Of a stretch of 32,077 bases of DNA, positions 2,255-32,077 are shown piece by piece. Source of the stretch: a virus. Position 1 is the first letter of the stretch. Every line of letters begins with the position of its first letter. Location: positions 1 through 32,077 of IMG/VR virus record IMGVR_UViG_3300029822_000049; one strand, given 5' to 3'. Both the position numbers and the translations under genes were made by a program. The notes beneath the pieces are model-generated. The model searched no databases. It was not told where the DNA came from and was given only the letters and a program-made list of their open reading frames with translations.

Positions 2255-3628
2255 ATGAAACCAATTATTGACATAAGTCATCATCAAGTATCAAACAAGA
2301 TTGATTACGACCTACTAGCAAGCCAAGTAGAAGCGGTCATCATCAGAGCATCTTACGCAACAGCAGTAGAACGTGAGTTTGAAAACCACTATCGAGAACT
2401 ATCAAAACGTGGTGTGCCAATGGGCGTGTATCATTATATTGTTGAGTATAGGTCAGTTGAAGCGCAAGTGGAAACATTCGCAAGTCGAGTAGCAGGAAAA
2501 GAGTTCAAACTTGGCTACTGGGCGGACGTTGAACTTGAACCAAACGCCACACCACTAACACGCCAGACCGTACACAAATTTATGCAACAAACAGAAGCAA
2601 GATTGAATACCGAGTTAGGGATTTATACAAGCTATTACATGTGGACACAAATCATGGGCGGTGCATATTACACTAACCGAAAATTATGGGTTGCACATTA
2701 CACCACAGGCAACGTGCCGATTTTACCGCCCGGGTGGCAAGATTGGTGGCTATGGCAACACACGTCAAAGGGCAAGCTACCGGGCTACAGTGGCGACCTA
2801 GACATGAACAAGTTTCGGTACGGGAAAGAAGTGTTTGACGCATGGATTGACAGAGAGCCAGTAGAAGAACCCGAACCAGAACCAGAACCAGAACCAGAAT
2901 TGGTACTGTACTCACCAGTCCCGAAAGGCACGAGAATAACACAGCGGTTTGGTATGAACCCTAGTTGGTATCCAACATCCAAAGGTCATAACGGTATCGA
3001 CTATGGCACTATGGTCGGCACGCCGATTACAGCTATGGCTGACGGTATTGTAGAAGTATCAAAAGAGCAAGTTGGGGGCTATGGCAGGCATATTAGAATT
3101 AGGCATGAGCATGGCGTATCCATTTACGGACACCTATCAAGACGAGATGTACAAGTAGGCGATAAAGTCATTGCAAAGCAACGCATTGGATTATCAGGCG
3201 GCAACCTTGAAGACCCTTACGCCGGTTTTAGTACCGGAGCGCACTTACATGCAGAATACCGCCAAGATAAGCCAGTTGTACCACTTGTACCCGGAAGCTA
3301 TGTTTACAATGCGATAGACCATTTACCGTTTATAAAAGAGGAAGAAGAAGAGGAGATACCCATGTTATATCAAGTTGAAGTAACAGTTTATGCCCTCAAC
3401 ATTCGAGCCGGAGTAGGAACACGTTATCCAATCATCCGAACGGTGTTGAAAGGTACAATCCTCAACGTTTACGCCGAAAGCCAAGAATGGCTGAAAGTTG
3501 GGGATAATCAATGGTGCAGTGGCGATAACCGGTACGTGAAACGCCTAGCCAATCCACCCTGTGAACCATGCGACAAAGAAGAAAAACTGAACAAACTTTG
3601 GGAAGCACACCCAGAATTGCATGAATAG
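2255..3628 (+). CDS. three-domain endolysin: GH25 muramidase + M23 peptidase + SH3b cell-wall binding domain
   Basis: GH25 motifs: IIDISHHQ, GVYHY, WADVE, WLWQHTSKGKLPGYSGDLDMNKF. A PEPEPEPEPEPE linker follows. M23 motifs: HNGIDYG (HxxxD) and GAHLHAEY (HxH). An EEEEEE linker follows. SH3b-like segment: LNIRAGVGTRYPIIRTVLKGTILNV...WLKV. Strong RBS (taaggagaaaaaATG). Confidence 0.9.
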   Translation: MKPIIDISHHQVSNKIDYDLLASQVEAVIIRASYATAVEREFENHYRELSKRGVPMGVYHYIVEYRSVEAQVETFASRVAGKEFKLGYWADVELEPNATPLTRQTVHKFMQQTEARLNTELGIYTSYYMWTQIMGGAYYTNRKLWVAHYTTGNVPILPPGWQDWWLWQHTSKGKLPGYSGDLDMNKFRYGKEVFDAWIDREPVEEPEPEPEPEPELVLYSPVPKGTRITQRFGMNPSWYPTSKGHNGIDYGTMVGTPITAMADGIVEVSKEQVGGYGRHIRIRHEHGVSIYGHLSRRDVQVGDKVIAKQRIGLSGGNLEDPYAGFSTGAHLHAEYRQDKPVVPLVPGSYVYNAIDHLPFIKEEEEEEIPMLYQVEVTVYALNIRAGVGTRYPIIRTVLKGTILNVYAESQEWLKVGDNQWCSGDNRYVKRLANPPCEPCDKEEKLNKLWEAHPELHE

Positions 3629-5853: not shown

Positions 5854-5886
5854 GACACGCCGGGAAATTAGAAAACCCGGCGTGTC
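5854..5886 (+). promoter_or_regulatory. intercistronic stem-loop (11-bp stem)
   Basis: gacacgccggg (5854-5864) pairs with cccggcgtgtc (5876-5886), with an 11-nt loop and no T-tract. Confidence 0.55.
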
Positions 5887-5956
5887 AAACCAACAACAGG
5901 AGAGTAACATAAATAACAGAATTGTAACACAAACAAAAAAACAAGGAGAAAACAAC

Positions 5957-6757
5957 ATGGAAACCAAGAACCTAACAAAGGCACTCATCGAGTTCCAAAA
6001 CGCCGTAAAACCCGCAAAATTTGACGCTAATAACCCATACTATAACAGCCGATATGCCAGTTTAGGCGAAATCATCAACACCGTCAAAAGCGAAGCCGGA
6101 AATCACGGATTGACATGGATACAGCTACCGATATCAGAGGGAGACCGAGTAGGCGTTAGAACAATCCTAATGCACGAAAGCGGAGAGCAAATTGAGGACA
6201 GCATTTTGGTACAGTTACCGCCAACGTATGTAACCAACAGCAAAGGCATTGACGTACTGCAAAACCAAATCCAAGAGACCGGTAAGTACATAACCTATCT
6301 GAGACGTTACGCCCTTGCAAGCGTGTTCGGTTTATACGCAGAGGAAGATAATGACGGAAACCAAAGAGGTCACAGCCCAACACCGACAAGCACCCGACAA
6401 CCGTCAAAAGCCCCGGCAAAGAAAGCCACCTCCACCAAAGCCCCGGAACGTCCATACTCACCCAAAGACTTAAAGAAAGTATTAGTGGCATATGCACCAA
6501 AACTAGCATCAGCAACACCACACCAGAAGAGACAAGTTGTGGCGGTATTGTCACAGTACACGGAAAATGATGACGCCAGACACCTTGTGCAAAAATTGTT
6601 GTTTGGCTTCGACTCTATCGATGACGCAAACGATAAACTTGTCAACGCAACGCACCGGTGGCTAAACGCCAAATGGGACGGTGAAACCAAGCAATACTTG
6701 TTACCAGAACCACAAGCCAGTGAGCTTTTGGCAATAATTGAGGAAGCCACCAAATGA
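5957..6757 (+). CDS. erf: ERF-family single-strand annealing recombinase
   Basis: LTKALIEFQNAVKPAKFDANNPYYNSRYASLGEIINTVKSEAGNHGLTW matches the ERF N-terminal signature (from memory). ATG at 5957 follows aaggaga. The GTG at 5882 in the track lies inside the hairpin. Pro/Ser/Thr-rich linker. Confidence 0.8.
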   Translation: METKNLTKALIEFQNAVKPAKFDANNPYYNSRYASLGEIINTVKSEAGNHGLTWIQLPISEGDRVGVRTILMHESGEQIEDSILVQLPPTYVTNSKGIDVLQNQIQETGKYITYLRRYALASVFGLYAEEDNDGNQRGHSPTPTSTRQPSKAPAKKATSTKAPERPYSPKDLKKVLVAYAPKLASATPHQKRQVVAVLSQYTENDDARHLVQKLLFGFDSIDDANDKLVNATHRWLNAKWDGETKQYLLPEPQASELLAIIEEATK

Positions 6758-14286: not shown

Positions 14287-14652
14287 GTGAGTGAACATAG
14301 CGAACAAGTAGCCCTATTCGAAGCATTACAAATCCATTCAAAACAAGAGCCCATGTTGCAATGGGCTTTTGCCATTCCAAACGGATTTTATTCAACGCCG
14401 GCACAAAAACGTAAAATGCGCAATGAGGGATTAAAGCCCGGGGTGTGGGATATATTCCTACCCGTTCCGATGCGTGGATTTCATGGCATGTTTATTGAGA
14501 TGAAGTTCGGAAGAAATACACTCTCAACACCACAAATTGAATTTTACAAATTCGCCAAAGAGCACTATTGCATGGTAGTTACATACACTTGGTTAGAAGC
14601 CTATAAAGCAATATGCGATTACCTTGAAATAGAGCCATATTTTGAAATGTAA
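14287..14652 (+). CDS. VRR-NUC domain nuclease
   Basis: GTG start after taggagagaatatttt. EQVALFEAL...AFAIPNG...[14 protein letters not shown]...[20 protein letters not shown] matches the VRR-NUC pattern (PD-(D/E)xK with E-x-K). Confidence 0.75.
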
Positions 14653-14661
14653 GGAGAAAAC

Positions 14662-15399
14662 ATGGATAATAACATTATAAAAAATAGGATTATCGGCACA
14701 GGAGAAGAACCACTAGACCAAATCCTATACAATCCAAAAAACTGGCGTATTCACCCACGTTATCAACAAGACGCATTAGAGGGAGTACTAAAAGAAATTG
14801 GCATAGTCCAAACGGTAATTATTAATAACATTACAGGCAACTTAATTGATGGGCATTTACGCTGTCGCTTAGCTGAAAAAAACGGACAAACAACAATACC
14901 AGTAACGTATGTTGAATTATCGGAAGAAGAAGAGGAAATAATCCTTACCAGCTTTGACCCGATTAGTGCAATGGCAACAACAGATAAAGAAAAACTAACA
15001 GAATTAATAAATTCAATCGAAACAGAAAATGAAACAATCCAAAATATATTAAATTCAATCGAAGACATAAATAAATTAGGGAACAAAAACGAAGGAACAG
15101 CCTTAGATATACTAACGTTAAACATAGATGAACCACTTACAGAAGTACAACCCGGAGACATTTATTACCTTGGGAATCATGTCCTAGTATGCGCTTCAAC
15201 TATCAAAAATAGCGAAACATGGAGACCATACTTTAACGATAATATGATTTTAGTACCATGGGCTAATCCATTAACTTTATTATCTGACCTCGCAGAAAAA
15301 ACAACAGTATTAGCACTCAATCCTCAGCCTTATGTTTGCGGGCATATTATTGATAGATACAAGGAAACAAATCCAGACAAGGAAATTATAAAATTATGA
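14662..15399 (+). CDS. ParB/Srx N-terminal domain protein with a decayed methylase-like C-terminal stub (DpdB-analogous position)
   Basis: NPKNWRIHP...VIINNITGNLIDGHLRCRLAEKNG...IPVTYVELSEEEE. C-terminus GDIYYLGNHVLVCAS...MILVPWANP, where ParB-methylase fusions have G(D/N)HRLlCGD...DPPY. AT-rich. Its stop overlaps the next ATG. Confidence 0.65.
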   Translation: MDNNIIKNRIIGTGEEPLDQILYNPKNWRIHPRYQQDALEGVLKEIGIVQTVIINNITGNLIDGHLRCRLAEKNGQTTIPVTYVELSEEEEEIILTSFDPISAMATTDKEKLTELINSIETENETIQNILNSIEDINKLGNKNEGTALDILTLNIDEPLTEVQPGDIYYLGNHVLVCASTIKNSETWRPYFNDNMILVPWANPLTLLSDLAEKTTVLALNPQPYVCGHIIDRYKETNPDKEIIKL

Positions 15400-16223
15400 A
15401 AAAAACAGGAGGAGCCCACTACCAAAAAAACAATACTCAGCTATATTTTATGGCGATAGGTGCTGACGACGCTAAAATATTTAATAACGCAAAAATCGCA
15501 AAAAATACATTATTACCATTAAACGCAATCACGCAAAACAATTTAGAAACGATAAAAAACCTACCAAACTTAAACCTATTAATAGATTCAGGCATTTACA
15601 ATTTAGCGAACACGATATCAAAAAAAGAAAAACTAACATTCACTGAAGCATTAAATATAAATCCAGAAAGAATACCAAGCTTCGAAGCTTATTATTCTAA
15701 TTATATTAAAACCATAAAAGAACTAGAACCACACATATGGGGATATATAGAATTAGACATAGGTGGCGAAAAAATAAAAACAAAATTACGTAAACAAATA
15801 GAAAAAGACGGATTAATACCTATACCTGTATGGCACCCATTAATTGATGGATTAAATTACCTCCAACAACTATTAGAGGAATACGACAGAATCTGTATAG
15901 GTAACCTATCTTATACTTCCAACAACGAAAGAATGAAAATACTACAAACCGTATTTAATATTAGAAATAATATAAAAAACAAAACATGGATTCACGCATT
16001 AGGCATGACACCAAATACCTTGTTGTATACATACCCAGTAGAGTCATGTGACTCATCTGCATGGGTATCAGGCATTAGATTCGCGAACCTTAAGGTTACA
16101 GGCGGAGCTGAAAATTTTGGCACACTAAGTAAAAAATACTTATACAACAAGCAAAGTAAAAAACATTATGAAAAAGCAAAACTATTAGCTAATTACGAGA
16201 CATATTTTATGGAATTAAACTAG
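15396..16223 (+). CDS. dpdA: tRNA-guanine-transglycosylase-superfamily protein, DpdA-like DNA transglycosylase candidate
   Basis: 275 aa. Ordered motifs LLIDSGIYN, WIHALGMTP and VESCDSSAW resemble TGT/ArcTGT DSGG(F/Y)Q, HLFG(V/A)G and D(L/M)FD(S/C). No CxCxxC zinc site. Flanked by the ParB-like gene and near the YhhQ-like gene. Confidence 0.55.
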   Translation: MKKTGGAHYQKNNTQLYFMAIGADDAKIFNNAKIAKNTLLPLNAITQNNLETIKNLPNLNLLIDSGIYNLANTISKKEKLTFTEALNINPERIPSFEAYYSNYIKTIKELEPHIWGYIELDIGGEKIKTKLRKQIEKDGLIPIPVWHPLIDGLNYLQQLLEEYDRICIGNLSYTSNNERMKILQTVFNIRNNIKNKTWIHALGMTPNTLLYTYPVESCDSSAWVSGIRFANLKVTGGAENFGTLSKKYLYNKQSKKHYEKAKLLANYETYFMELN

Positions 16224-16251
16224 CAAAAATACACACAGGAGCAAAACAATT

Positions 16252-17076
16252 ATGGAAAAAATAGTATATAAAGTGGAACCCGGCATGGATAGAAAACTAA
16301 TAAAAGCAACAACCTACCAAATGCGAAATTTCTATCGACAGTTTGGAGACGGTTTCTTTGGCGTACTAGATGTTATGAATTACATTCAACACCAAGCAAT
16401 AGTTCAAATGGCACGTAAAGGAGACCATGTACTAGATGTTTGTTGTGGCAGAGGATTGTTATTACCAATGCTACGTTATGAACGAAAAAATATAGCTTCT
16501 TACACAGGAGTTGATATAGAACCTAAAAACGCAATATGGCAAACAAAACGAGTAACAGACAACAAACCAATTGAAAAAGATTATTACCCATTCGAAACAA
16601 AATTCATAAGGTCAAACGTCGCTACGATGTCGCCACTATTACAACAAAAACACTATAACCTTGTAGTTTACACTTCCTCAATTGAACACATGCAAAAAAT
16701 TGACGGATACAAGTCATTACAAGAAATTCGCAAAATAATACACCCGAACGGAACACTCGTTCTAACTTGCCCAAATACACCAGAACACAAAGACGGATAT
16801 GATACACAGTATGCAGCTCATGTTTACGAATGGAAACGAAGCGAACTACTCGAAGCATTTCAAGACATTGGATATGAAATACAAAAAGAATATTCAATAC
16901 TTACAACAAAACAAGATATTAAAAACGAAGTACCTGAAATATACAAAAAACTTGAAGACATCATTCCTACATCATGGATAATTGGCGTTCTATCACCACT
17001 TGTTACACCCATAAAATCAAAAGAAATAGCATTCATATTAAAACCATTGCAAAACAATGCTATAAAATCACCATAG
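16252..17076 (+). CDS. class I SAM-dependent methyltransferase (small-molecule type; no DNA-methylase motif IV)
   Basis: Motif I VLDVCCGRG, acidic post-I GVDIE, then YNLVVYTSSIEHM and IHPNGTLVLTCPN. I found no (D/N/S)PP(Y/F/W) and no PCQ-type motif. Confidence 0.8.
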   Translation: MEKIVYKVEPGMDRKLIKATTYQMRNFYRQFGDGFFGVLDVMNYIQHQAIVQMARKGDHVLDVCCGRGLLLPMLRYERKNIASYTGVDIEPKNAIWQTKRVTDNKPIEKDYYPFETKFIRSNVATMSPLLQQKHYNLVVYTSSIEHMQKIDGYKSLQEIRKIIHPNGTLVLTCPNTPEHKDGYDTQYAAHVYEWKRSELLEAFQDIGYEIQKEYSILTTKQDIKNEVPEIYKKLEDIIPTSWIIGVLSPLVTPIKSKEIAFILKPLQNNAIKSP

Positions 17077-17090
17077 AAAGGAAAAAACCC

Positions 17091-17759
17091 ATGAAAAACA
17101 AAGAAAGAAACATAGTCCTTATAATTGTCGCCTTAATCGGAATGTACATTGCTTCGCAGGCGATAGCGGACGTTGCAGCGACCCGAATGATTCAAATCGG
17201 AAAAATCGTATTACCCGGTGGCGTACTCATGTTCGCATTAACTTTCACGTTGCGAGACTTTATTCATAAGCGATTAGGTAAAAAATGGGCACGAGCAACA
17301 GTCATCATGGCAGCAGTAATGAATGTCGTCCAACTAGCGTACCTGTATTTTATCGGCAAGCTAGACACGCCTGTATTTTATGGTTTCAATGAAGAATGGC
17401 GAAATATCTTTGCTATTGTCCCAGCGGTATCAATCGCCAGTATTGTAGCTGAAGTATCCAGTCAACTAATTGACACGGAAGTGTATCAATTCATTATGGA
17501 CAAATATCCAAAATTGCCACAGATATTCAGAGTATTAATATCAAACTTCATCGCCTTACCATTCGACTCGTTAATCTTTGCGTTACTCGGTTTTGTTATT
17601 TTGCCACAATTGTTTGGCAGTACAAGTTACACATTTTTTGACGCAATAGCATTGACATCAGGACAGATTATTTACAAAGCGATAGTGACCATTTTATCTG
17701 CTCCAGCCATTTATTTAATCAAAGACGAGCCGATAAAGGTGTCCTTAATGACAGAATAG
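17091..17759 (+). CDS. yhhQ: YhhQ/VUT-family queuosine-precursor (preQ0/preQ1) transporter
   Basis: 222 aa from ATG 17091, polytopic. FALTFTLRDFIHKRLGKKWARATV, SQLIDTEVYQF and PFDSLIFALLGF align by eye with E. coli YhhQ (FLATDLTVRIFGAPLARRII, GQILDVHVFNRL, VSDTLAFFFIAF). Same length class. Confidence 0.75.
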   Translation: MKNKERNIVLIIVALIGMYIASQAIADVAATRMIQIGKIVLPGGVLMFALTFTLRDFIHKRLGKKWARATVIMAAVMNVVQLAYLYFIGKLDTPVFYGFNEEWRNIFAIVPAVSIASIVAEVSSQLIDTEVYQFIMDKYPKLPQIFRVLISNFIALPFDSLIFALLGFVILPQLFGSTSYTFFDAIALTSGQIIYKAIVTILSAPAIYLIKDEPIKVSLMTE

Positions 17760-17763
17760 TGGC

Positions 17764-18132
17764 ATGACAACACCAAAAAAAGAGCGGCGAAAGAAATACA
17801 CCAACGCTGAAATCAAAAATGCGTTAATAAAAACGAATGGATATATCACCTTAGCCGCTCGAATGTTAGGTTGCGAACCCAAAACCATTTATAGACGACT
17901 GGACAAAACGGAAGCATTAAGACAAACCCTCAAAGACATCAGAGAACAAGAACTTGATATCACGGAGCAGAAGCTACACCAAGCGATTTTGAACGGAGAG
18001 CCATGGGCTATCACCCTAAAGCTAAAAACGCTTGGCAAAAGCCGTGGATATACCGAACGAACAGAACTAACAGGACAAGGAAACAAGCCTATAACTTTTG
18101 TACTTCAACGCCATGAACCAGAAGAAGATTGA
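17764..18132 (+). CDS. terS: terminase small subunit
   Basis: 122 aa. HTH ITLAARMLGCEPKTIYRRL. Immediately upstream of TerL and overlapping it. Confidence 0.6.
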   Translation: MTTPKKERRKKYTNAEIKNALIKTNGYITLAARMLGCEPKTIYRRLDKTEALRQTLKDIREQELDITEQKLHQAILNGEPWAITLKLKTLGKSRGYTERTELTGQGNKPITFVLQRHEPEED

Positions 18133-19264
18133 CTTATACCCAGCGCAATATGATTTTGTGGTTTGCGAAGATAACCTAACCGGTTTTGTTGCCGGTATCG
18201 GAGCAGGAAAAACGTATGCCGGAGCATTAAAATCCGCAATATACTCAAACCGCCCCGGGTTAGGAATGATAGTTGCCCCAACCTATGGCATGCTTAGGGA
18301 TAGCACGCTTAGAACGTTCATGGATTTAGCCGGAGAAGCAATCGTTGACGAAGAACGGTCAAGTATGACACTATTCACCACCGGTGGCGGTGAAATCCTG
18401 TTACGGTCAGCAGACAACCCTGAAAAACTAAGAGGTCCAAACCTGAACTGGATATGGATTGACGAGGGTGGACTAACAAAAGAACTCACATGGCAAATCT
18501 GCATTGGTCGTTTACGTGCCGGCGGTAAGTTTGGTCATCTTTGGGTCACCACCACACCCAAAGGCAAACGGAATTGGGTTTACAAAATATCAAAAGAAAT
18601 GAAAGTATTCCGGGCAACAACTTTTGACAATCCATTCACATCCAAAGACTGGCAACGCCAACTGACACAATCTTATGTTGACGATTTCTTACGTCAAGAA
18701 GCGTATGGAGAATTCGTATCGTTTGACGGACTGGTATATCCACAATTCCAACCAGAACACATTGTCAAACGAGACCTGACACTGCTTGGAGAATTCGACC
18801 TTGGCGCTGACGAGGGTTACACCAATCCGGCGGTCATACTCAAAGTTTACAGTGACAATGACGGAGGCTACCACATCGCAGAGGAATGGTATGAACGTGG
18901 CAAATTACAATCCGAGCAAGTCGACAACGTAGTAAGAATGGCTGACAACCAAGACCCAGATATCGGAGTAGATAGTTCAGCCAGAGGACTAATCGCAGCC
19001 ATTCGAAATGAGGGATTAAGAGCCAAAGGCACAACCGGCAAAGTCTTACAGGGAATAAAAAACATTCAAGAGTTATTAGCAAATGGTAAAATCACAGTAG
19101 ACCCGTCTTGCGTAAGAACCATTGCCGAGTTTGAAAGCTACCAATGGAAACCCGGAACAGACGAGCCACAAAAAGAGAATGACCACGCTATGGACGCTTT
19201 AAGGTACGCTATCAACAAAAAGAAAGACAGCACACCACAAAAAGCACAGCAAAGGAGATACTAA
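18113..19264 (+). CDS. terL: terminase large subunit
   Basis: Walker A GIGAGKTY and Walker B NWIWIDEGG. C-terminal nuclease-type DLGADEG and DHAMDALRYA. The track start at 18098 is a TTG. Confidence 0.88.
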   Translation: MNQKKIDLYPAQYDFVVCEDNLTGFVAGIGAGKTYAGALKSAIYSNRPGLGMIVAPTYGMLRDSTLRTFMDLAGEAIVDEERSSMTLFTTGGGEILLRSADNPEKLRGPNLNWIWIDEGGLTKELTWQICIGRLRAGGKFGHLWVTTTPKGKRNWVYKISKEMKVFRATTFDNPFTSKDWQRQLTQSYVDDFLRQEAYGEFVSFDGLVYPQFQPEHIVKRDLTLLGEFDLGADEGYTNPAVILKVYSDNDGGYHIAEEWYERGKLQSEQVDNVVRMADNQDPDIGVDSSARGLIAAIRNEGLRAKGTTGKVLQGIKNIQELLANGKITVDPSCVRTIAEFESYQWKPGTDEPQKENDHAMDALRYAINKKKDSTPQKAQQRRY

Positions 19265-22359: not shown

Positions 22360-23328
22360 ATGAGTATAATCACCAAAGCCAACACTACCGCACTTGTACC
22401 AGAGGACGCAACTCGAGAAATCTTGAAGTCTGTACCTCAACAATCCCAAGTGCTCGCCCTTGCCACCAGACTTGCCAACATGTCAGCAGGTCAACGCAGA
22501 ATTCCTGTAATGTCTGCTATGCCCCAAGCTTATTTTGTTGAGGGCGTTCCTAGTGCCGCTCCCAACAATACCGTTGGTTTTAAGAAAACCACCAAAGCCG
22601 CATGGGACAATGTCTACATCACCGCCGAAGAAATTGCCTGTATCGTACCAATTCCAATTAGCGTATTGGAAGATGCAGCCTATGATATCTGGGCTGAAAT
22701 CCGTCCTTATATCGCACAGGCGTTTGGCATTGTCATTGACGATGCCATTTTGAACGGAACTGACAAACCAGCAAGTTGGGCGGACGGTATCGTTACCCAA
22801 GCCAAAGCAGCCGGACACGAAATAGAACGTGGCGCAACCGGCGCAGAACTGTACCAAGCCCTGTTGGGTGAAACCGGCGTAATCAACATGGTTGAAAATA
22901 CCGGCTCGTTACCAAATGCGGTACTTGCGTCCACAAAAATGCGTGGCGTAATCCGTGGCGCAGTTGACACCCAAGGTCAGCCCCTGTTCCGCGCTACCGC
23001 ACAAGAAAGCCAACCATACGTTATTGACGGACTTCCTGTCCACTTTGACGAAACCAAGGTACTAACCGACCTTGCTGTAGTTGGCGATTGGAGCAAGCTT
23101 GTGTATGCTATCCGCACGGACATGACTTACAAAGTCTTGACTGAAGCAATCATCCAAGACCTTGCCACGAGCGAAATTATCTACAACCTTGCACAGCAGG
23201 ACATGGTTGCCTTGCGTTGTTACATGCGCATGGGTTGGGCATTGCCAAATCCTGTAAACATTGCCGGCAACGGTGTACCGTTTGCGGTACTCACGCCCGT
23301 AGCAGAAGAAGCATCAGGCGGAGAATAG
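22360..23328 (+). CDS. major capsid protein (HK97-fold type)
   Basis: 322 aa. High-GC, codon-optimised look, strong RBS, correct position, followed by a strong stem-loop. Confidence 0.85.
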   Translation: MSIITKANTTALVPEDATREILKSVPQQSQVLALATRLANMSAGQRRIPVMSAMPQAYFVEGVPSAAPNNTVGFKKTTKAAWDNVYITAEEIACIVPIPISVLEDAAYDIWAEIRPYIAQAFGIVIDDAILNGTDKPASWADGIVTQAKAAGHEIERGATGAELYQALLGETGVINMVENTGSLPNAVLASTKMRGVIRGAVDTQGQPLFRATAQESQPYVIDGLPVHFDETKVLTDLAVVGDWSKLVYAIRTDMTYKVLTEAIIQDLATSEIIYNLAQQDMVALRCYMRMGWALPNPVNIAGNGVPFAVLTPVAEEASGGE

Positions 23329-26324: not shown

Positions 26325-26653
26325 GAGAGGGCAGTCGGAGATTTTACTTCCGACTTGCCCTTAAACTCGGCATGACAGTAACAGAACTATTATCAAGAAT
26401 ATCAAGCCGAGAATTGACAGAATGGATGTCTTTTTTTGAATTAGAACCGTGGGGCACAGAGACAGAACTGCTCGGACACGCTATCACCAGCGCAACCATA
26501 GCCAACGTGAACCGGGACACCAAGAAAAGACCTAACCCATTCACAGCAAATGATTTTATACCAGAATTCGACCGGTACAAAGCAACTGAGAACCAAGCCC
26601 TGAAAATCCGTCAAATCAACGCCATGTTTGGCGGAAAGGAGATAAGCAAATGA
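25971..26653 (+). CDS. tail assembly chaperone frameshift fusion (gpGT analogue; -1 shift at 26321)
   Basis: The -1 frame is open from 26300 to 26653. The ATG at 26372 has no RBS. The stop overlaps the TMP start (ATGA, 26650-26653). Confidence 0.7.
26315..26360 (+). promoter_or_regulatory. programmed -1 ribosomal frameshift signal: slippery heptamer A_AAA_AAC plus downstream stem-loop
   Basis: The heptamer at 26315-26321 is in the X_XXY_YYZ register of the 25971 frame. A 7-nt spacer follows, then the stem gggcagtcgga (26329-26339) / tccgacttgccc (26349-26360) with one bulged T. Confidence 0.75.
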
Positions 26654-29529
26654 GTACAATTGCAGATTTAGCGGTAAAGCTAGGACTTGACTCTAGTGGT
26701 TTTAGTAAAGGCGTTGGACAAGCGCAAGGTGATTTATCCAAGCTTGAACAATCAGTCAACAAAGTTCGTGAAGCCGGTAAAAAAATATCAGACGTTGGCA
26801 AAGCTATTTCTATTGGCGTTACTGCACCTGTTACCGCCGCAAGTATCGCACTTTTGAAGTTTGGTTCAGACGCTCAAAAATCACTTCAAATTGAAAAAGC
26901 ATTTAATGATATTGCGTCCTCAGCCGGACGAATGGGAAGAGAAGTTTTGGCAGGACTGAAAATGTCAAGCCAAGGACTAATCACCAACACCGAATTAATG
27001 AAATCGTTTAACCTTGCTGCCAACTTAGTCAGCACAGATTTTGCACTTAAGCTACCAGAAGCCATGAAATATCTTGGCAAAGTATCAGCTGCAACCGGTC
27101 AAGACATGAGTTATCTATTGGATAGTCTTGTCAAAGGTGTTGGTAGATTATCGCCAATGATTTTAGACAACCTAGCGGTGCAAGTAAGCCTAACAGACGC
27201 TTATGATAAATATGCTAAAAGCATTGGCAAAACAGCAGACGAACTAACCAAAGCAGAACAGCAAACCGCAGTCATGAATGAAACCATGCGCCTATTAAAA
27301 CGCAACACCGCAAGCATGGGAGATGAATTCGGTACAACCGGCGACAAAATCAAAACCGCAATGGGTAACGCAAAAGACGCAATTGGAAAACAACTTGCCC
27401 CAGCACTAAAAGACGCAGGAGAAAGAATCATTCCGCTTGTCAATCGTTTTGCTGAATTATTCAAAGAGGGCAACTCACTGCACCCGATTATTACAGTGCT
27501 TGGAGACACTATCAACAAACTAATAGGACACGCAGAAAACCTTGTAAACTGGCTAAGCCAACTTAACCCACAAGTGGTAGAGAATACAGCCAAATTTACC
27601 CTGTTTTTAACTGTGCTAGGACCTGTACTGACCGTTGTCGGAAAACTAACAACCGGTTTTGGCAGTTTCATGGGCGTGCTAGGAAAAATAGGAACACTAT
27701 TCAAAAACACAATTATTGCGTTTGAGGGTGGCAACCTTGTATTAGCATCGACAGGGTTAGCCGCCAAAGGCGCAGCAAGCGGTGTTGCCACGTTATCTGT
27801 ATCGCTTAGCAAATTAGCCATGTTCGGCGGTTGGGGATTATTAGTAGGCGGTGCAATCGCACTCGGAAAATGGCAAAAAGAGCTTGAAAACACTAGTAAC
27901 ACTGTTGCAGATAGCATGAGAGATATTGACGGTGTTTTAATCAAAAGCGGACAAAGCTTTGATGATTGGCGTGAAAGTGTCAACAACGCATTAAAAGACA
28001 TAGAGCTTCCAAAAGGACTTTCAGAATGGGATATGCAAGTTGCATTTATCAAAACCCAAATGGAAGACCTTGTAAAAGCAGGCGTAATCACCGCAGACGA
28101 AATGGAAAGCCTATACTGGCGCATGCGTAACCCCGGTTCAGGTGGTGGCATGGCAGTTATGAACTACGTCCACGGTTTGGTAGAGGGATATGAAACCCTA
28201 AAGGAAACCATGTGGAGTATTGTTCCGGCAATGGAAGCGTATGATGACGCTATCGACTACCAAGAGGGTTTAGTCGGTGTTGGACGGACAGCAGAAGAAT
28301 TAGAAAAAGTTCGTGACAACGCAGAGGAAGCCACAAGCGCAGCCGCAGAACTAGCCGCGGAATTACAATCATTTACCGTTCAAGTAGATGACATTACAAG
28401 CCTAACAAAAAACTTCGGGAGTATCGTTTCTTTAGCGGAAAGCTACACCACAGAACTTGAAAATATTGCAAAGGTGCAAGAGCGAATTAAAGAGCTAGAA
28501 CCGTTCGAAGATACCGGCGGACGGATTGACGGTGTTTGGAGGTCAGCAGCGAAAGTCAAAGAAGAGCTGGAAAACTTGCGTGGTGAAGTATCAAAGAGCG
28601 AAGAAGCCATGCAACGTATGGCAGACCAAATGACCTTAAACATGCTACAAGCTACTATTGCAATCGGTGGCGTCACACAGGCAGAAGCAGAAGCATATTT
28701 CAAAATGGCAGTTGATATGGGCGTCATCAGTCAAGATGCAGCAGATAAAGCAATCGAAGCCTATGGCGATGCAGTAGACACTATCAATGACTATGTAATA
28801 GAAACAAAAACCGGCATAGTAGAAGCAAGCGCAGAACAGTACTGGCGTGTTATCCGAGATATTGAAAGTCAACAATTCCAAGATAAAATAGCCAACCTTA
28901 TTGCAGAGGCAGAACAGTTTGACGAAACATGGTCGAATAGGGACGCTTTAGAGTTCGGGCAAAAAGTTGCTGATACATTATTAGAAACCGGTCAGTTTGG
29001 AGAGGATTTCAGCGCAATTGACGCATTAGAATTCCTTGGAAAAACCATTCCAGTTGAATTGAAAAACGCCGCAATCGCACAAGACAATTTGGACAGATTC
29101 CAAAACTTCGAATTTATTCCAAAAACTATTGACTTTATTCTAGGCGATACATCAGAAATAGAGGGATACAATCCACCAACCCGAACCGGAACTGTAAATT
29201 ATCAGCTAGGCAATACTCCGACGTGGAATCCACCGTCTTATGGTCCAACACTAACACCAAGAGCAACAGGCGGTAGAGCAATTACAGATAGCGTTTACTT
29301 GGTCGGCGAGCGCGGGCCCGAGCTATTCATTCCTGATGTGTCCGGAAACGTTATTCCAAACTGGCAACTTGACGTATCAAGCACTTCATCATTTGATGAA
29401 AGAGCATTGGCTCGGGCTGTCGCAACCGCCATGAGAGAGGTATATCAGGAACAAGCCTTGCAAGATGAAATGAACACCACACAAAAAAGAAGTCGTAGAA
29501 GTGCTTTTGTAGAAGTAGAGGATTGGTAA
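26650..29529 (+). CDS. tape measure protein
   Basis: 959 aa, Ala/Gly/Leu-rich and helical with hydrophobic central segments. Canonical position. Confidence 0.9.
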   Translation: MSTIADLAVKLGLDSSGFSKGVGQAQGDLSKLEQSVNKVREAGKKISDVGKAISIGVTAPVTAASIALLKFGSDAQKSLQIEKAFNDIASSAGRMGREVLAGLKMSSQGLITNTELMKSFNLAANLVSTDFALKLPEAMKYLGKVSAATGQDMSYLLDSLVKGVGRLSPMILDNLAVQVSLTDAYDKYAKSIGKTADELTKAEQQTAVMNETMRLLKRNTASMGDEFGTTGDKIKTAMGNAKDAIGKQLAPALKDAGERIIPLVNRFAELFKEGNSLHPIITVLGDTINKLIGHAENLVNWLSQLNPQVVENTAKFTLFLTVLGPVLTVVGKLTTGFGSFMGVLGKIGTLFKNTIIAFEGGNLVLASTGLAAKGAASGVATLSVSLSKLAMFGGWGLLVGGAIALGKWQKELENTSNTVADSMRDIDGVLIKSGQSFDDWRESVNNALKDIELPKGLSEWDMQVAFIKTQMEDLVKAGVITADEMESLYWRMRNPGSGGGMAVMNYVHGLVEGYETLKETMWSIVPAMEAYDDAIDYQEGLVGVGRTAEELEKVRDNAEEATSAAAELAAELQSFTVQVDDITSLTKNFGSIVSLAESYTTELENIAKVQERIKELEPFEDTGGRIDGVWRSAAKVKEELENLRGEVSKSEEAMQRMADQMTLNMLQATIAIGGVTQAEAEAYFKMAVDMGVISQDAADKAIEAYGDAVDTINDYVIETKTGIVEASAEQYWRVIRDIESQQFQDKIANLIAEAEQFDETWSNRDALEFGQKVADTLLETGQFGEDFSAIDALEFLGKTIPVELKNAAIAQDNLDRFQNFEFIPKTIDFILGDTSEIEGYNPPTRTGTVNYQLGNTPTWNPPSYGPTLTPRATGGRAITDSVYLVGERGPELFIPDVSGNVIPNWQLDVSSTSSFDERALARAVATAMREVYQEQALQDEMNTTQKRSRRSAFVEVEDW

Positions 29530-29530
29530 T

Positions 29531-32023
29531 ATGCTTAAACCATTGAACGAAACCAAATTCAAGTTTTGGATTGTAGACCCAGTAGAGAGTATAAACCACG
29601 TTGAAAACCCACTTCCATGGACTTTAGAGGGATATTCAAAATCAAACCCTAATGGAAGTCTTGAAGTACGCACGGAACACATGCGCAATGGCGGTCCGTG
29701 CTTACGGGCTATTGATACAAGCATCAAATACACAAAACCAATGACCGAACTTGAAGCAGGCGAACAGTATGAGTTGCTTATTGACGCATACGCAGTAAAA
29801 GACACTATATTAACCGTGCACGTAGTAAAACACAATGGTCCGGCAATTAAGACAAAAAGCTTTCGTATGGGTGGTAATTGGCAATGGCTAAGAATACCGT
29901 TTATAGGTGTGCACGGAGTAACGTTTGAAATAGAGATGACAGACCAAGAAGGTGACATAGTTGACAACACGTTTTGGATTGATAGGTTATCAGTCCAAAA
30001 AGGTACTAACATGACTTGGTTCTGCGGATATGGCTTTAGCGCAGATACAAGTTTACACTTCCGTTGGGAAGGAGAGCCAATGAACAGCCGGTCAATTCAC
30101 AATGGACAAGACCGCAGAGCCGGCAAAATGTATGACCTTGATGATTACATGGAAGTTAAACGAGTGCTTGGTCTAGGCATGGGTGATTGGGAACAGCGCA
30201 TGACACCAGTTTTGACAGGTGGAGCGTTATATCAAGACATGATTGAGCAACCCAGACCGTTTAGTATTGTTGGCGTAAACAAAGCCACGAAAATGAAAGA
30301 CCTCATGCTGAAGCGCAAGATTATTAGCTTGCTAGTACGTCCTGATACCAACGAACACAGCCCACTTAATCTAATATTCCAAGCATTCAACAAAGTGCAT
30401 GGCTACCCAGAATCAGAGGAACTAACAATCGAATGTGTTTGCACCTCAGCCTTAAAAGACATGCCACACTATGACACCGTAGCAGACAGCGTTTTGACTT
30501 TTGTAAAACCAGACCCGTACCTGTATGGAAATTATTACAATGGATATAGGCAAGGGCAGGACATTGAAATCACCTCTGACAACATCATAATGAGGAAAAC
30601 GAACGGTGAATGGAAAGCATTACCCGGACTTGACGGACCAGTAAGAGCAGTCGCTTTTGACAGTTCAGGTCGCATATGGGCTGGCGGTGAATTTACTGGA
30701 AAAGTAAAAGTTTGGAATGGCTCGATGTGGACAAACGTACCCGGAGATACACGAATGCCAAACAATACCGTGTATACTATTACGTGTCTTCCAAACGGAG
30801 AAGTGTATATTGGTGGCAATTTTACGCAAATAGGACCTGCTCCAATACAACGAATCGCACATTACAGAAAATTAAGCGATAACACTTGGGCTTGGACAGT
30901 GCTAAAATCAGGAAATGCAGTTAGCAACGGAGACGTAAGAGCCATTCACATTGACGGAAACGGTCACGCAGTTATAGGTGGCTCGTTCAGCACAGTTGAC
31001 GGACAAACATCAAGAGCAATCGCAAAATACAACCCATTCGATAACACTTGGAAAACATATGGAAACGCAATATCAAGTGGGCAAATACTAAGTATATGTG
31101 ACGGCGGATTACCGCATCGAATTGCAATTGCCGGAGACTTCGATGTTTCAAGCAGTATCAGACACATAGCGTTTTTGTTTACTGATAGCGGTAATGTTAT
31201 GTCAATGGGAGACACCAGAACGTATCCGCAAAACTTCTTTGTAGCAAAACGCATTATAAAGCTAGCAGATTCATCTTTAGCCTATGTTGGCAGATTCAAT
31301 ATTGGACGCACTCATGGTGTTGGAAGATATAAAAACGCAAGAAACGAAGCATTAGCTACTAACCTAGGAAACGGAACACTTGACGGTATCGAACATATTC
31401 ATCAAAACGTAGATGGAACAATTGACGTATTTACAAACGAATATGATTTTGAATATAACGGAGAGGAAATAGGCAGGTTTATTCGCATCAGAAACAACAT
31501 TGTTGAACGAAACTTAGATGTTAATGTTATTACCGACAGCATTCCAAGCGCCCAATTTTACACATCAGCAACGACTATTTATGGAGATACTGTTTTGGGC
31601 GGTTGGTGGAGTGGCGTTATTAAAATGCCCGGACCACCCGATATTATTCCAATGGTGTCAGAAGCAACAGCAGGAACGTACCCAATTATCAGGGCGTTTG
31701 GGTTCAAACGAATGCGGTCAATTTACAACAGAAGAACAGGGAAGACAATCCAGTTTAGAGAAGCATTGCTACTCGAAAAACAATGGCTAGAAATGGCACT
31801 CATGCCAGACAACATCAGAGTTATGATTGACTGGAAAAACCGTCTTGACCTTGTAACAGTTGGGTCAAGCCTATCATCATTCGTTTTAGAACCCGGGCGC
31901 AATGAAATCCTAGTTGATACAACCCTATATGAAACAGATCCAAAGACCAATGAACCGGGTGATGTTTACGTGCTATGGAAGCCAAGATTTTGGGGAGTAG
32001 AGGGAGCGTTCCGAAATGATTAG
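29531..32023 (+). CDS. elaborated distal tail protein (Dit) with N-terminal CBM-like jelly roll and inserted beta-propeller-like repeats
   Basis: 830 aa, immediately after the TMP. The C-terminus (GKTIQFREALLLEKQWLEM...LDLVTVGSSLSSFVLEPGRNEILV) is typical of siphovirus Dit proteins. Central repeats GG(E/N/S)F(T/S)...(V/I)A(H/K)Y...W. Confidence 0.65.
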   Translation: MLKPLNETKFKFWIVDPVESINHVENPLPWTLEGYSKSNPNGSLEVRTEHMRNGGPCLRAIDTSIKYTKPMTELEAGEQYELLIDAYAVKDTILTVHVVKHNGPAIKTKSFRMGGNWQWLRIPFIGVHGVTFEIEMTDQEGDIVDNTFWIDRLSVQKGTNMTWFCGYGFSADTSLHFRWEGEPMNSRSIHNGQDRRAGKMYDLDDYMEVKRVLGLGMGDWEQRMTPVLTGGALYQDMIEQPRPFSIVGVNKATKMKDLMLKRKIISLLVRPDTNEHSPLNLIFQAFNKVHGYPESEELTIECVCTSALKDMPHYDTVADSVLTFVKPDPYLYGNYYNGYRQGQDIEITSDNIIMRKTNGEWKALPGLDGPVRAVAFDSSGRIWAGGEFTGKVKVWNGSMWTNVPGDTRMPNNTVYTITCLPNGEVYIGGNFTQIGPAPIQRIAHYRKLSDNTWAWTVLKSGNAVSNGDVRAIHIDGNGHAVIGGSFSTVDGQTSRAIAKYNPFDNTWKTYGNAISSGQILSICDGGLPHRIAIAGDFDVSSSIRHIAFLFTDSGNVMSMGDTRTYPQNFFVAKRIIKLADSSLAYVGRFNIGRTHGVGRYKNARNEALATNLGNGTLDGIEHIHQNVDGTIDVFTNEYDFEYNGEEIGRFIRIRNNIVERNLDVNVITDSIPSAQFYTSATTIYGDTVLGGWWSGVIKMPGPPDIIPMVSEATAGTYPIIRAFGFKRMRSIYNRRTGKTIQFREALLLEKQWLEMALMPDNIRVMIDWKNRLDLVTVGSSLSSFVLEPGRNEILVDTTLYETDPKTNEPGDVYVLWKPRFWGVEGAFRND

Positions 32024-32077
32024 ATACGACCTCAACCGGTTTTGGGCGGACGGAAGTCGTATCGACCTATTCGCTGC
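31979..32077. repeat. terminal direct repeat, copy 2 (identical to 1-99)
   Basis: Exact 99-nt identity. Includes a duplicate of the start of the 38-1135 CDS (ATG at 32016). Confidence 0.95.

Follow-up and report, generated by a model that had tools for sequence, protein, structure and literature searches.

A DpdA-linked class I methyltransferase family of uncultured phages, a probable tailoring enzyme of 7-deazaguanine DNA

Introduction

The presence of 7-deazaguanine derivatives in DNA protects phages from restriction and from CRISPR-Cas9 cleavage (the protection from Cas9 in vitro), and eight such derivatives are known together with the enzymes that make them. Two enzymes are associated with the conversion of the carboxyl group of 7-carboxy-7-deazaguanine (CDG): QueC transforms it to the nitrile of preQ0 and DpdL is proposed to replace it with hydrogen, which yields 7-deazaguanine (DG). 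The only validated deazaguanine-DNA methylase is DpdM, a DUF3109/YkgJ-like protein with CxxxCxxCC metal sites known from Cellulophaga phage phiSM as well as from Vibrio phage VH7D (PMC10516641). In the literature consulted, no class I methyltransferase has been linked to DpdA, the DNA guanine/7-deazaguanine transglycosylase. The window analysed here is the entire 32,077-nucleotide stretch of the IMG/VR virus record IMGVR_UViG_3300029822_000049, in which an open reading frame (ORF) of 274 aa at 16252-17076 on the + strand (hereafter, MTase) lies between genes for DpdA and for the transporter YhhQ. A first-pass annotation, made from the letters alone, had considered it to be a non-DNA-type S-adenosylmethionine (SAM)-dependent methyltransferase which might tailor 7-deazaguanines and whose product could be new. 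The comparative evidence presented below makes it highly probable that MTase is indeed a 7-deazaguanine tailoring enzyme; if true, the list of known enzymes would gain one that has no relationship to DpdM, and the list of DNA bases probably a new member.

The methyltransferase family and its linkage to DpdA

All four SAM-binding motifs of the class I type that had been pointed out earlier are present in MTase, viz. VLDVCCGRG (residues 60-68), GVDIE at 86 (with D88), IEHM at 144 and HPNGTLVLTCPN at 164. Four Pfam families are matched above their cut-offs, namely Methyltransf_23 (E=6.4e-14, 52.4 bits; cut-off 27), Methyltransf_11 (38.4; 21.2), Methyltransf_31 (35.6; 27) and Methyltransf_25 (34.1; 27), and the AlphaFold2 (AF2) model built from a 32-member family alignment (A1) displays a class I methyltransferase fold with a predicted local distance difference test score (pLDDT) of 93.8 and a predicted template modelling score of 0.91. 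More than 1,000 PDB structures match this fold at E<=0.001, the top ones all being class I methyltransferases with a probability of 1.0. A motif search of MTase detected no [DNS]PP[YFW], PC dipeptide or ENV, and no DNA-methyltransferase family is found among the Pfam, PHROG and PADLOC matches of the ORF; the protein qualifies neither as a DNA N6-adenine/N4-cytosine nor as a DNA C5-cytosine methyltransferase. The assignment as a class I (Rossmann-fold), non-DNA-type SAM-dependent methyltransferase is thus confirmed at the level of sequence and predicted structure.

Attempts to derive a substrate class from fold or sequence returned only generic class I methyltransferases from PDB and BFVD. The structure prediction and comparison suggested by the first-pass annotation therefore delivered a confident fold, but no substrate class. 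The best matches in PDB and BFVD are generic class I and cap guanine-N7 methyltransferases with template modelling (TM) scores of 0.5-0.57, besides one methyltransferase of an uncultured phage, matched at a TM of 0.74. The best PDB sequence-profile match is the cap guanine-N7 methyltransferase Ecm1 (E=1e-5, over residues 43-95 only), and the corresponding Pfam family PF03291 scores 20.4 bits against a cut-off of 26.6, over residues 42-131 only. All NCBIfam equivalogs score far under their cut-offs (CpaM, 37.4 vs 180 bits; UbiG, 31 vs 103; UbiE, 27.9 vs 216; PrmC, 20.3 vs 199 with E=3e-4; BioC and Hen1 likewise). A curated rRNA, ubiquinone/menaquinone or other equivalog was therefore rejected, and with it the unrelated substrate class (for instance rRNA or ubiquinone methyltransferases) whose clear recognition the first-pass annotation had regarded as a refutation of the tailoring role. 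Homology to DpdM was rejected as well, as MTase has no Pfam match to DUF3109 and its only cysteines (C64, C65 and C173) do not form a CxxxCxxCC site. The earlier statement that methylated dPreQ1 has been described is correct (mdPreQ1 is known), but the DUF3109 enzyme responsible for it is unrelated to MTase.

Database searches yielded 736 relatives of MTase, among them over 120 clusters that share 50-69% identity and have equal length, so that a chance occurrence of the ORF is far out of the question. Across the 32 aligned members, 56 residues are invariant, and the family possesses two blocks of its own, one N-terminal (before motif I) and one distal (CPNTPE...GYDTQYAAHVYEWKRSEL, after β5). 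The phages concerned are uncultured; hundreds of them are known from metagenomes, and their habitats are the gut (that of humans included), the rumen, sediment and freshwater. Among 185,579 species genomes only 11 relatives were found, located on contigs of metagenome-assembled genomes and on prophages; one of the 11 lies in the complete chromosome of a Faecalibacterium prausnitzii strain. Cultured phages yielded no close relatives, as a tblastn search of MTase against 50,697 GenBank phage records (INPHARED, August 2025) gave two matches at ~22% identity and blastn of the gene cassette against the phage records gave none. MTase thus appears to represent a previously undescribed, tightly conserved and phage-borne family which is distinct, by sequence, from the curated ones.

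To place the family in its genomic context, 179 MTase loci were gathered from viral, genome and metagenome contigs and grouped into 78 lineages at 90% identity (denoted by L numbers where needed), and their ORFs were searched with profiles which had been started from proteins of the window and from QueC/D/E/F and Tgt of E. coli K-12 and then iterated. The MTase family lies beside DpdA in essentially every lineage. A DpdA-type gene is found within ~3 kb of MTase in 26 of 26 viral lineages. Where both flanks extend over 5 kb or more, a recognised DpdA-type gene is present in 23 of 25 lineages (22 of the window's type and one of type c38); one of the two exceptions, L100, has a Pfam tRNA-guanine transglycosylase (TGT) protein in place of DpdA. 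In 29 of 49 lineages, DpdA is on the same strand and directly adjoins MTase. The partner DpdAs are very divergent (17-35% identical to that of the window), with a mean column identity of 20% as compared to 60% for the MTases, which are 45-69% identical.

A gene slot shared with QueC and DpdL

The composition of the cassettes was compared with that of a DpdA-anchored set, drawn from one DpdA subclade with more than 573 IMG/VR relatives; the subclade alignment was used for this purpose since the full partner alignment is too divergent. MTase is present in 3 of the 55 loci of this set. The MTase-less arrangements (as dereplicated lineages) are ParB-DpdA-QueC-YhhQ (15), ParB-DpdA-YhhQ (12+1), ParB-DpdA-QueC-QueD-QueE-FolE (7) and ParB-DpdA-QueD-QueE-FolE (1). 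The MTase cassettes read ParB-DpdA-MT-YhhQ (the window), ParB-DpdA-MT, (ParB-)DpdA-MT-QueD-QueE-FolE and QueD-QueE-MT-FolE-DpdA. Among the cassettes for de novo synthesis of CDG, QueC is carried by 5 of 18 lineages with MTase vs 7 of 8 without it (Fisher p=0.009), and among all cassettes by 5 of 28 vs 22 of 36 (p=0.0008). Profile searches of the 179 MTase loci detected neither QueF nor Tgt, DpdL was likewise found in none of the 179, and a search for cryptic QueC-like PP-loop proteins revealed none.

The DpdA subclade of the window itself is rare (9 database relatives), and its MTase-less relatives carry a protein of 110-117 aa, which directly follows DpdA in L261. This protein can be assigned to DpdL by sequence, since its best match is a protein of Acidovorax phage ACP17 (42% identity, E=7e-22), a phage for which Cui et al. 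name a dpdL, and since three of three copies possess the published DpdL signature LxxxHRHxF. Three enzymes, QueC, DpdL and MTase, thus alternate beside DpdA, and MTase is an optional module in a gene slot otherwise held by QueC or DpdL. C7-methylation of DG after decarboxylation was considered as a further activity and rejected, as DpdL is absent from the 179 MTase loci and the QueD genes there are canonical.

Two additional observations concern the MTase-less loci. The 15 lineages with ParB-DpdA-QueC-YhhQ (loci L181-L259 of the DpdA-anchored set) have no FolE, QueD or QueE; since the CDG-consuming QueC is paired there with a transporter only, it is plausible that the phage YhhQ of these lineages may import CDG (instead of or besides preQ0/preQ1), or host CDG may be used. 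Furthermore, high-GC relatives of the window DpdA (L263:6001-7943, L265:1-2365 and L261:6909-7262) carry 2-3 tandem DpdA paralogues together with DpdL, and in L265 a phosphoribosyltransferase adjoins QueD.

Co-variation of the DpdA specificity loop with the methyltransferase

Enzymes of the TGT family sense the 7-substituent of the base via a Gly-rich β6-α6 loop, in which a conserved valine (Val198 of the archaeal TGT, Val209 of the bacterial DpdA) limits the pocket to the slim cyano group (PMC10164549); the Val233Gly variant of TGT indicates that the same position gates bulkier substituents (PMC3660597). In the AF2 model of the window DpdA, the loop lies between the sixth β-strand (165-168) and the helix 176-191.

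In the densely sampled subclade, the MTase-partnered DpdAs are scattered over the tree in at least five separate places, and the two columns which discriminate best between DpdAs with and without MTase are adjacent and fall in the motif AIGG-I-V-S-K-E. The MTase-less DpdAs have V at the first of these columns in 55 of 57 cases, followed by S/T/G/A/D (GG-I-V-[S/T/G] in 53 of 57), as does the DpdA of phage JenP1 (GG-L-V-G), the genus of which inserts preQ0 (PMC6884629). With MTase, the first column is A in 16 of 19 cases and the second is I or V in all 18 alignable ones, so that the loops of this subclade read GG-x-A-I/V or GG-Y-V-I (18 of 18 alignable). The DpdA of the window reads ICIG-N-L-S172-Y173-T after β6 and thus lacks the pocket-restricting valine. 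Its own subclade comprises an MTase-partnered pair with GN-L-S-Y-T and seven other relatives with GN-[IVL]-V-[QMRH]-A; the three of these seven whose context was checked have DpdL and no MTase. Across all subclades, the valine of the loop is replaced by a small residue in partnered DpdAs from lineages without QueC (GG-x-A-I/Q, GV-A-G-M/N, GN-L-S/A), apart from a few which read GG-Y-V-I.

Given the recurrent replacement of the valine and the known role of the loop, we infer from sequence and model that the base handled by MTase-partnered DpdAs would bear a different, bulkier 7-substituent than preQ0 or DG. A rule for practical use follows: the base inserted by a phage DpdA is tracked by the residue that its β6-α6 loop has at the valine position, which could help in predicting the DNA modification from sequence.

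Lineages with QueC and candidate nitrile-converting enzymes

QueC is carried by 8 of the 78 MTase lineages (type II, as opposed to type I without QueC). Where the DpdA of these lineages is recognisable, its loop has remained of the preQ0 type (GG-M-V-G/P in L099 and L030); L100, with its TGT-like protein, reads GS-I-V-P. A DpdC-like or DJ-1/PfpI gene is found in seven of the eight, vs 1 of the 70 lineages without QueC (Fisher p=2e-8). The DpdC-like proteins (~167 aa; L030:11864-12376, L099:9457-9954, L100:10813-11313 and L141:844-1341) are weak matches to DUF6884, the DpdC domain, and the DJ-1/PfpI protein (L010:11193-11834) directly follows MTase and is accompanied by a 121-aa partner. The lone exception without QueC, L141, is arranged as DpdA(GG-M-V-G-K)-DpdC-like-MT-YhhQ, i.e. 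with a preQ0-type DpdA and an importer of preQ0. MTase-less QueC cassettes are essentially devoid of these genes, with a DpdC-like gene in a single locus out of 42 and no DJ-1.

Bacterial DpdC (Salmonella) hydrates the nitrile of dPreQ0 in DNA to the carboxamide, dADG (PMC10164549). The DpdC-like and DJ-1/PfpI proteins may be phage enzymes that convert the nitrile or the amide for deazaguanine DNA. In nitrile-making lineages, MTase is hence joined by a candidate nitrile converter and never by a nitrile reductase; as DpdC gives a carboxamide and not an amine, the type II architecture points to the carboxyl oxidation level. A split of type I and type II MTases into two substrate classes was not supported, as no systematic difference is seen in the active site: 53 of 67 conserved columns are identical and the others deviate in single sequences. 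In the YhhQ tree, MTase-partnered transporters tend to adjoin QueC-partnered ones; this tendency is confounded by phage phylogeny and was not used.

Genome and cassette of the window phage

The window begins and ends with an exact direct repeat of 99 nt (1-99 and 31979-32077), and the same phage was assembled eight times at ~32.08 kb, with the circle opened at other points. This identifies the window as the complete, circularly permuted genome (~31,978 bp) of a siphovirus-type phage. Its siphovirus-like gene set includes genes for a tail protein (38-2043), an endolysin (2255-3628), Erf (5882-6757), the large terminase TerL (18098-19264), the portal protein, the major capsid protein (22360-23328) and the tape-measure protein (26650-29529).

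MTase belongs to a tightly packed, same-strand (+) unit of four genes spanning 3.1 kb (14662-17759). A gene for a ParB-N protein (14662-15399) overlaps by 4 nt that for DpdA (15396-16223), which is followed after a 28-nt gap by MTase and, 14 nt further, by YhhQ (17091-17759, 17091 being the real start); a terS-like gene begins at 17764 after a 4-nt gap and is followed by TerL. Each cassette gene is preceded by a Shine-Dalgarno-like sequence and no terminator-like site was found on the + strand of the cassette. The GC content of the cassette is 34.6%, vs 43.4% in the remaining window, and the terminase genes lie immediately 3' of it, which together suggest that the cassette is a horizontally acquired module. 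YhhQ is its sole precursor-supply gene. Profile searches of the complete genome detected no QueC, QueD, QueE, FolE, QueF or DpdL, and the earlier statement that neither an amidotransferase nor a QueF-like gene is present holds for the whole phage; preQ1 riboswitches and tRNA genes are likewise absent from the window. Directly upstream of the cassette, a VRR-NUC-like nuclease is encoded (14287-14652, +; weak match to PF08774, phrog_824 at 8e-28). It is uncertain whether it belongs to the module, such a neighbour being seen in three lineages only (it recurs in L001 and L006). On the terminase side, an HTH_8-containing protein of 122 aa (17764-18132) overlaps the called TTG start of TerL by 35 nt; it is the probable small terminase, and the true start of TerL may lie further downstream.

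The identities of the two genes flanking MTase, as read in the first-pass annotation, were corroborated. The product of 15396-16223 matches phrog_887 (E=3e-26), as do 32 of 32 aligned partners, and a profile of the MTase-partnered DpdAs headed by that of the window aligns with the DpdA of JenP1 (9g-like Nonagvirus) at 100% probability (hhalign, E=3e-44). D64-S-G and the aspartate D219 of DS(S/T)xW are invariant, and D219 aligns with the nucleophile D264 of Tgt, the local hhalign alignments with E. coli Tgt being of low probability. The AF2 model (pLDDT 76.7) has TGT structures as its top 45 PDB fold matches. On this sequence and model evidence, the protein is a true phage DpdA, of the DpdA1-like kind, with predicted DNA guanine/7-deazaguanine transglycosylase activity. 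The product of 17091-17759 is, by its matches to TIGR00697 (61.9 bits; cut-off 50.95) and Vut_1 (84 bits; cut-off 27.2; E=2e-23), a predicted queuosine-precursor transporter of the YhhQ/COG1738 family. The ParB-N protein matches ParB_N weakly, as well as phrog_498/620, and positions 24-186 of 436 of the PADLOC model MTase_II, i.e. roughly the initial third of a ParB-DNA-methyltransferase fusion; it bears a vestigial start of the methyltransferase domain ('PGDIYYLGNHVLVC') and lacks the catalytic motif. A gene of the ParB-N kind precedes DpdA in 55 of 55 DpdA-anchored loci. By analogy with the DpdB-DpdA pair, it is possibly a DpdB-like accessory of DpdA; DpdB proper was rejected, as PADLOC returned MTase_II and no Dpd model.

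Three further MTase neighbourhoods deserve mention. A minimal ParB-DpdA(IGGFAIK loop)-MTase cassette is present in a prophage of F. prausnitzii strain 2, a cultured host (L094:8627-10837, NZ_CP186691.1), with no supply genes within 10 kb; this lineage is the largest (47 IMG/VR loci) and provides a tractable experimental system. In L001 (4103-7817, GCA_054403375.1), MTase-ParB-DpdA is preceded by a 249-aa catalytic domain of a class I aminoacyl-tRNA synthetase (tRNA-synt_1c, GluQRS-like) and, also upstream, by a GH42-like protein and an ABC permease that is accompanied by a Peripla_BP_4 binding protein, which may represent a different salvage or decoration route. In L003 (10317-14321 of a 98.7-kb viral contig), DpdA-MT-QueD-QueE-FolE is followed by three more class I methyltransferases as well as by genes for a sulfotransferase-like protein, glycosyltransferases and a nucleoside 2-deoxyribosyltransferase, suggesting a larger hypermodification island.

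Proposed function and alternative explanations

The linkage to DpdA, the equivalence of the slot, the anti-correlation with QueC and the co-variation of the loop together argue that MTase acts on the C7 substituent. With QueF absent, QueC depleted and DpdC-like/DJ-1-like genes recruited, the loci point to CDG or a derivative at the carboxyl level as the substrate. MTase would accordingly methylate a C7 group at the carboxyl level and, in the simplest case, turn CDG into the methyl ester, a reading to which a probability of roughly 0.45 is given. MTase would thus constitute a third alternative to QueC (CDG to preQ0) and DpdL (CDG to 7-deazaguanine). CDG would be drawn from the host pool or enter through the phage YhhQ, its carboxyl group would be converted by MTase and SAM to yield 7-methoxycarbonyl-7-deazaguanine, and the co-adapted DpdA, aided by the ParB-like protein, would swap the ester base for guanine in DNA; alternatively, dCDG would be methylated after insertion. 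What we infer here comprises the CDG-level substrate, the ester product, the origin of CDG and the stage, before or after insertion, at which methylation occurs. Ester formation would neutralise the charge of the carboxylate in a single ATP-independent step, where QueC needs two ATP-dependent ones. Such neutralisation would be useful, as CDG is poorly inserted by a characterised DpdA (DpdA2 of VH7D inserts it ~40-fold less efficiently than preQ1; PMC10516641). As to timing, methylation of the free base is favoured by the near-neutral isoelectric point (pI) of the MTase family (median ~6.5-7.1) as against the basic DpdA partners (8.8), by the extreme conservation and by the DpdA loop changes; the first two would fit a small, invariant substrate. 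Methylation at the DNA level is favoured by the type II architecture, if the phage DpdC-like protein acts on DNA as that of Salmonella does. As a tentative extension, phage DNA may hold a ninth, unreported 7-deazaguanine derivative, 7-methoxycarbonyl-7-deazaguanine, which DpdA loops would have repeatedly re-evolved to accept, with import of CDG by the phage YhhQ as a corollary.

Several points weigh against esterification of CDG. The YhhQ of E. coli is documented for preQ0/preQ1 and not for CDG, and the window phage carries no CDG source genes. Fold and sequence searches revealed no specific similarity of MTase to known carboxyl methyltransferases. Five MTase lineages carry QueC as well, and MTase is hence no strict replacement of it; further, a DpdC of the bacterial type would in the type II lineages give an amide and no acid in DNA, yet the active-site columns of type I and type II MTases are the same. 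Many partnered DpdAs have a loop, GG-I-A-V/I, that is similar to the GG-L-A-V loop of the preQ1-accepting bacterial TGT, and the mapping of the loop derives from AF2 secondary structure, the JenP1 profile alignment and the literature rather than from a solved DpdA complex. Finally, the loci span up to 10 kb on each side of MTase and the lineages are not phylogenetically independent.

The loop resemblance leads to an alternative in which MTase is a non-homologous analogue of DpdM that N-methylates preQ1 (free or as dPreQ1, the preQ1 being supplied by the host or through YhhQ) to mdPreQ1 or to a di- or trimethyl form. N-methylation of amines is common among class I methyltransferases and preQ1 is within the known range of E. 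coli YhhQ. In addition, mdPreQ1 is known from phage DNA, and a DpdA2 can insert preQ1 from the pools of the host at ~2,800 per 10^6 nt (PMC10516641). Such an activity is nevertheless unlikely, because QueF is found in 0 of 179 loci, QueC is depleted instead of enriched, and the nitrile-making lineages add a candidate hydratase (DpdC-like/DJ-1-like) and no reductase; moreover, most de novo cassettes end at QueE, and the literature argues likewise for the DpdL and DpdA3 phages. The tailoring function put forward by the first-pass annotation is therefore strengthened by the near-obligate DpdA linkage, the slot equivalence and the loop co-variation, its product may well be new, and preQ1, one of the substrates it had considered, is disfavoured. 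The adjacency of a DpdC-like gene to MTase in L099, L100 and L141, the action of Salmonella DpdC on DNA to yield dADG and the weak NCBIfam match to PrmC (E=3e-4) would be consistent with PrmC-like N-methylation of the carboxamide of ADG/dADG, or with some other action on the DNA-embedded base after a DpdC-type step. This appears distinctly unlikely, as ~70 of the 78 MTase lineages, including the window, lack both QueC and a DpdC-like gene and so have no encoded route to ADG, and as MTase has a neutral or acidic pI and no NPPY-type motif of amide/N6 methylases.

The remaining alternatives place the methyl group elsewhere. MTase might modify another atom, either a ring or exocyclic atom of the deazaguanine or N7 of the target guanine, whose glycosidic bond would thereby be labilised for DpdA. 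Such a function would not depend on the supply module, and it is suggested by Ecm1 as the best PDB sequence match, by the cap methyltransferases among the best TM matches (PDB, BFVD), by the sub-threshold PF03291 match and by HuiC, a class I methyltransferase that acts on free preQ0 (at O6, in huimycin biosynthesis). However, the cap-methyltransferase similarity is below threshold (20.4 vs 26.6 bits), O6-methylation would destroy base pairing, and over 90% of the closely related DpdAs do without MTase, which is carried by 3 of 55 loci. Another target atom would also leave unexplained why QueC is depleted, why the DpdA loop has changed recurrently and why DpdC-like/DJ-1 genes are recruited only with QueC; it is improbable, somewhat less so than the amide. 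Lastly, the purely generic methyltransferase domain matches would suit an auxiliary small-molecule, tRNA or protein methyltransferase which travels with the cassette and has no deazaguanine role at all. This is very improbable given the presence of DpdA in essentially every lineage despite 17-35% identical DpdAs and varied gene orders, the co-variation of DpdA residues with MTase and the near-absence of MTase from cellular genomes.

Comparison with known systems

The chemistry proposed for MTase has precedent among tRNA-modifying enzymes, as SAM-dependent CmoM methyl-esterifies a nucleobase carboxylate (PMC12783734). CmoM and Trm9 (cmo5U to mcmo5U and cm5U to mcm5U, respectively) are class I SAM enzymes that perform the proposed esterification; they act on tRNA uridines and are not among the NCBIfam/PHROG matches, and the likeness is one of proposed chemistry only. 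The cap guanine-N7 methyltransferases (Ecm1, RNMT) bind guanine with position 7 facing SAM, and the Ecm1 profile match covers the N-terminal helix and motifs I-II (TM 0.54-0.57); in contrast to MTase, they do not have the N- and C-terminal blocks of the family, and 7-deazaguanine has no N7. HuiC resembles MTase as a class I SAM methyltransferase (PF08241) whose substrate is a free 7-deazaguanine base, but it belongs to a secondary-metabolite context without DpdA and was set apart by its description.

DpdM is likewise a phage methyltransferase tailoring 7-deazaguanine in DNA and encoded next to dpdA/que genes. It differs, however, in having a metal-cluster fold in place of the class I Rossmann SAM fold of MTase, and the phages that carry it encode QueC and QueF and make preQ1, whereas the MTase loci are without QueF and mostly without QueC. 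The closest counterparts of MTase in genomic position are DpdL and QueC, which occupy the same slot near DpdA and process CDG, the product of QueE. Phages with DpdL, like most phages with MTase, have FolE, QueD and QueE and no QueC. The three folds are different, DpdL being a proposed T-fold decarboxylase (a QueD paralogue), QueC a PP-loop ATPase and MTase a SAM methyltransferase, and the DpdA partners of DpdL and QueC keep the Val-type loop, whereas those of MTase do not.

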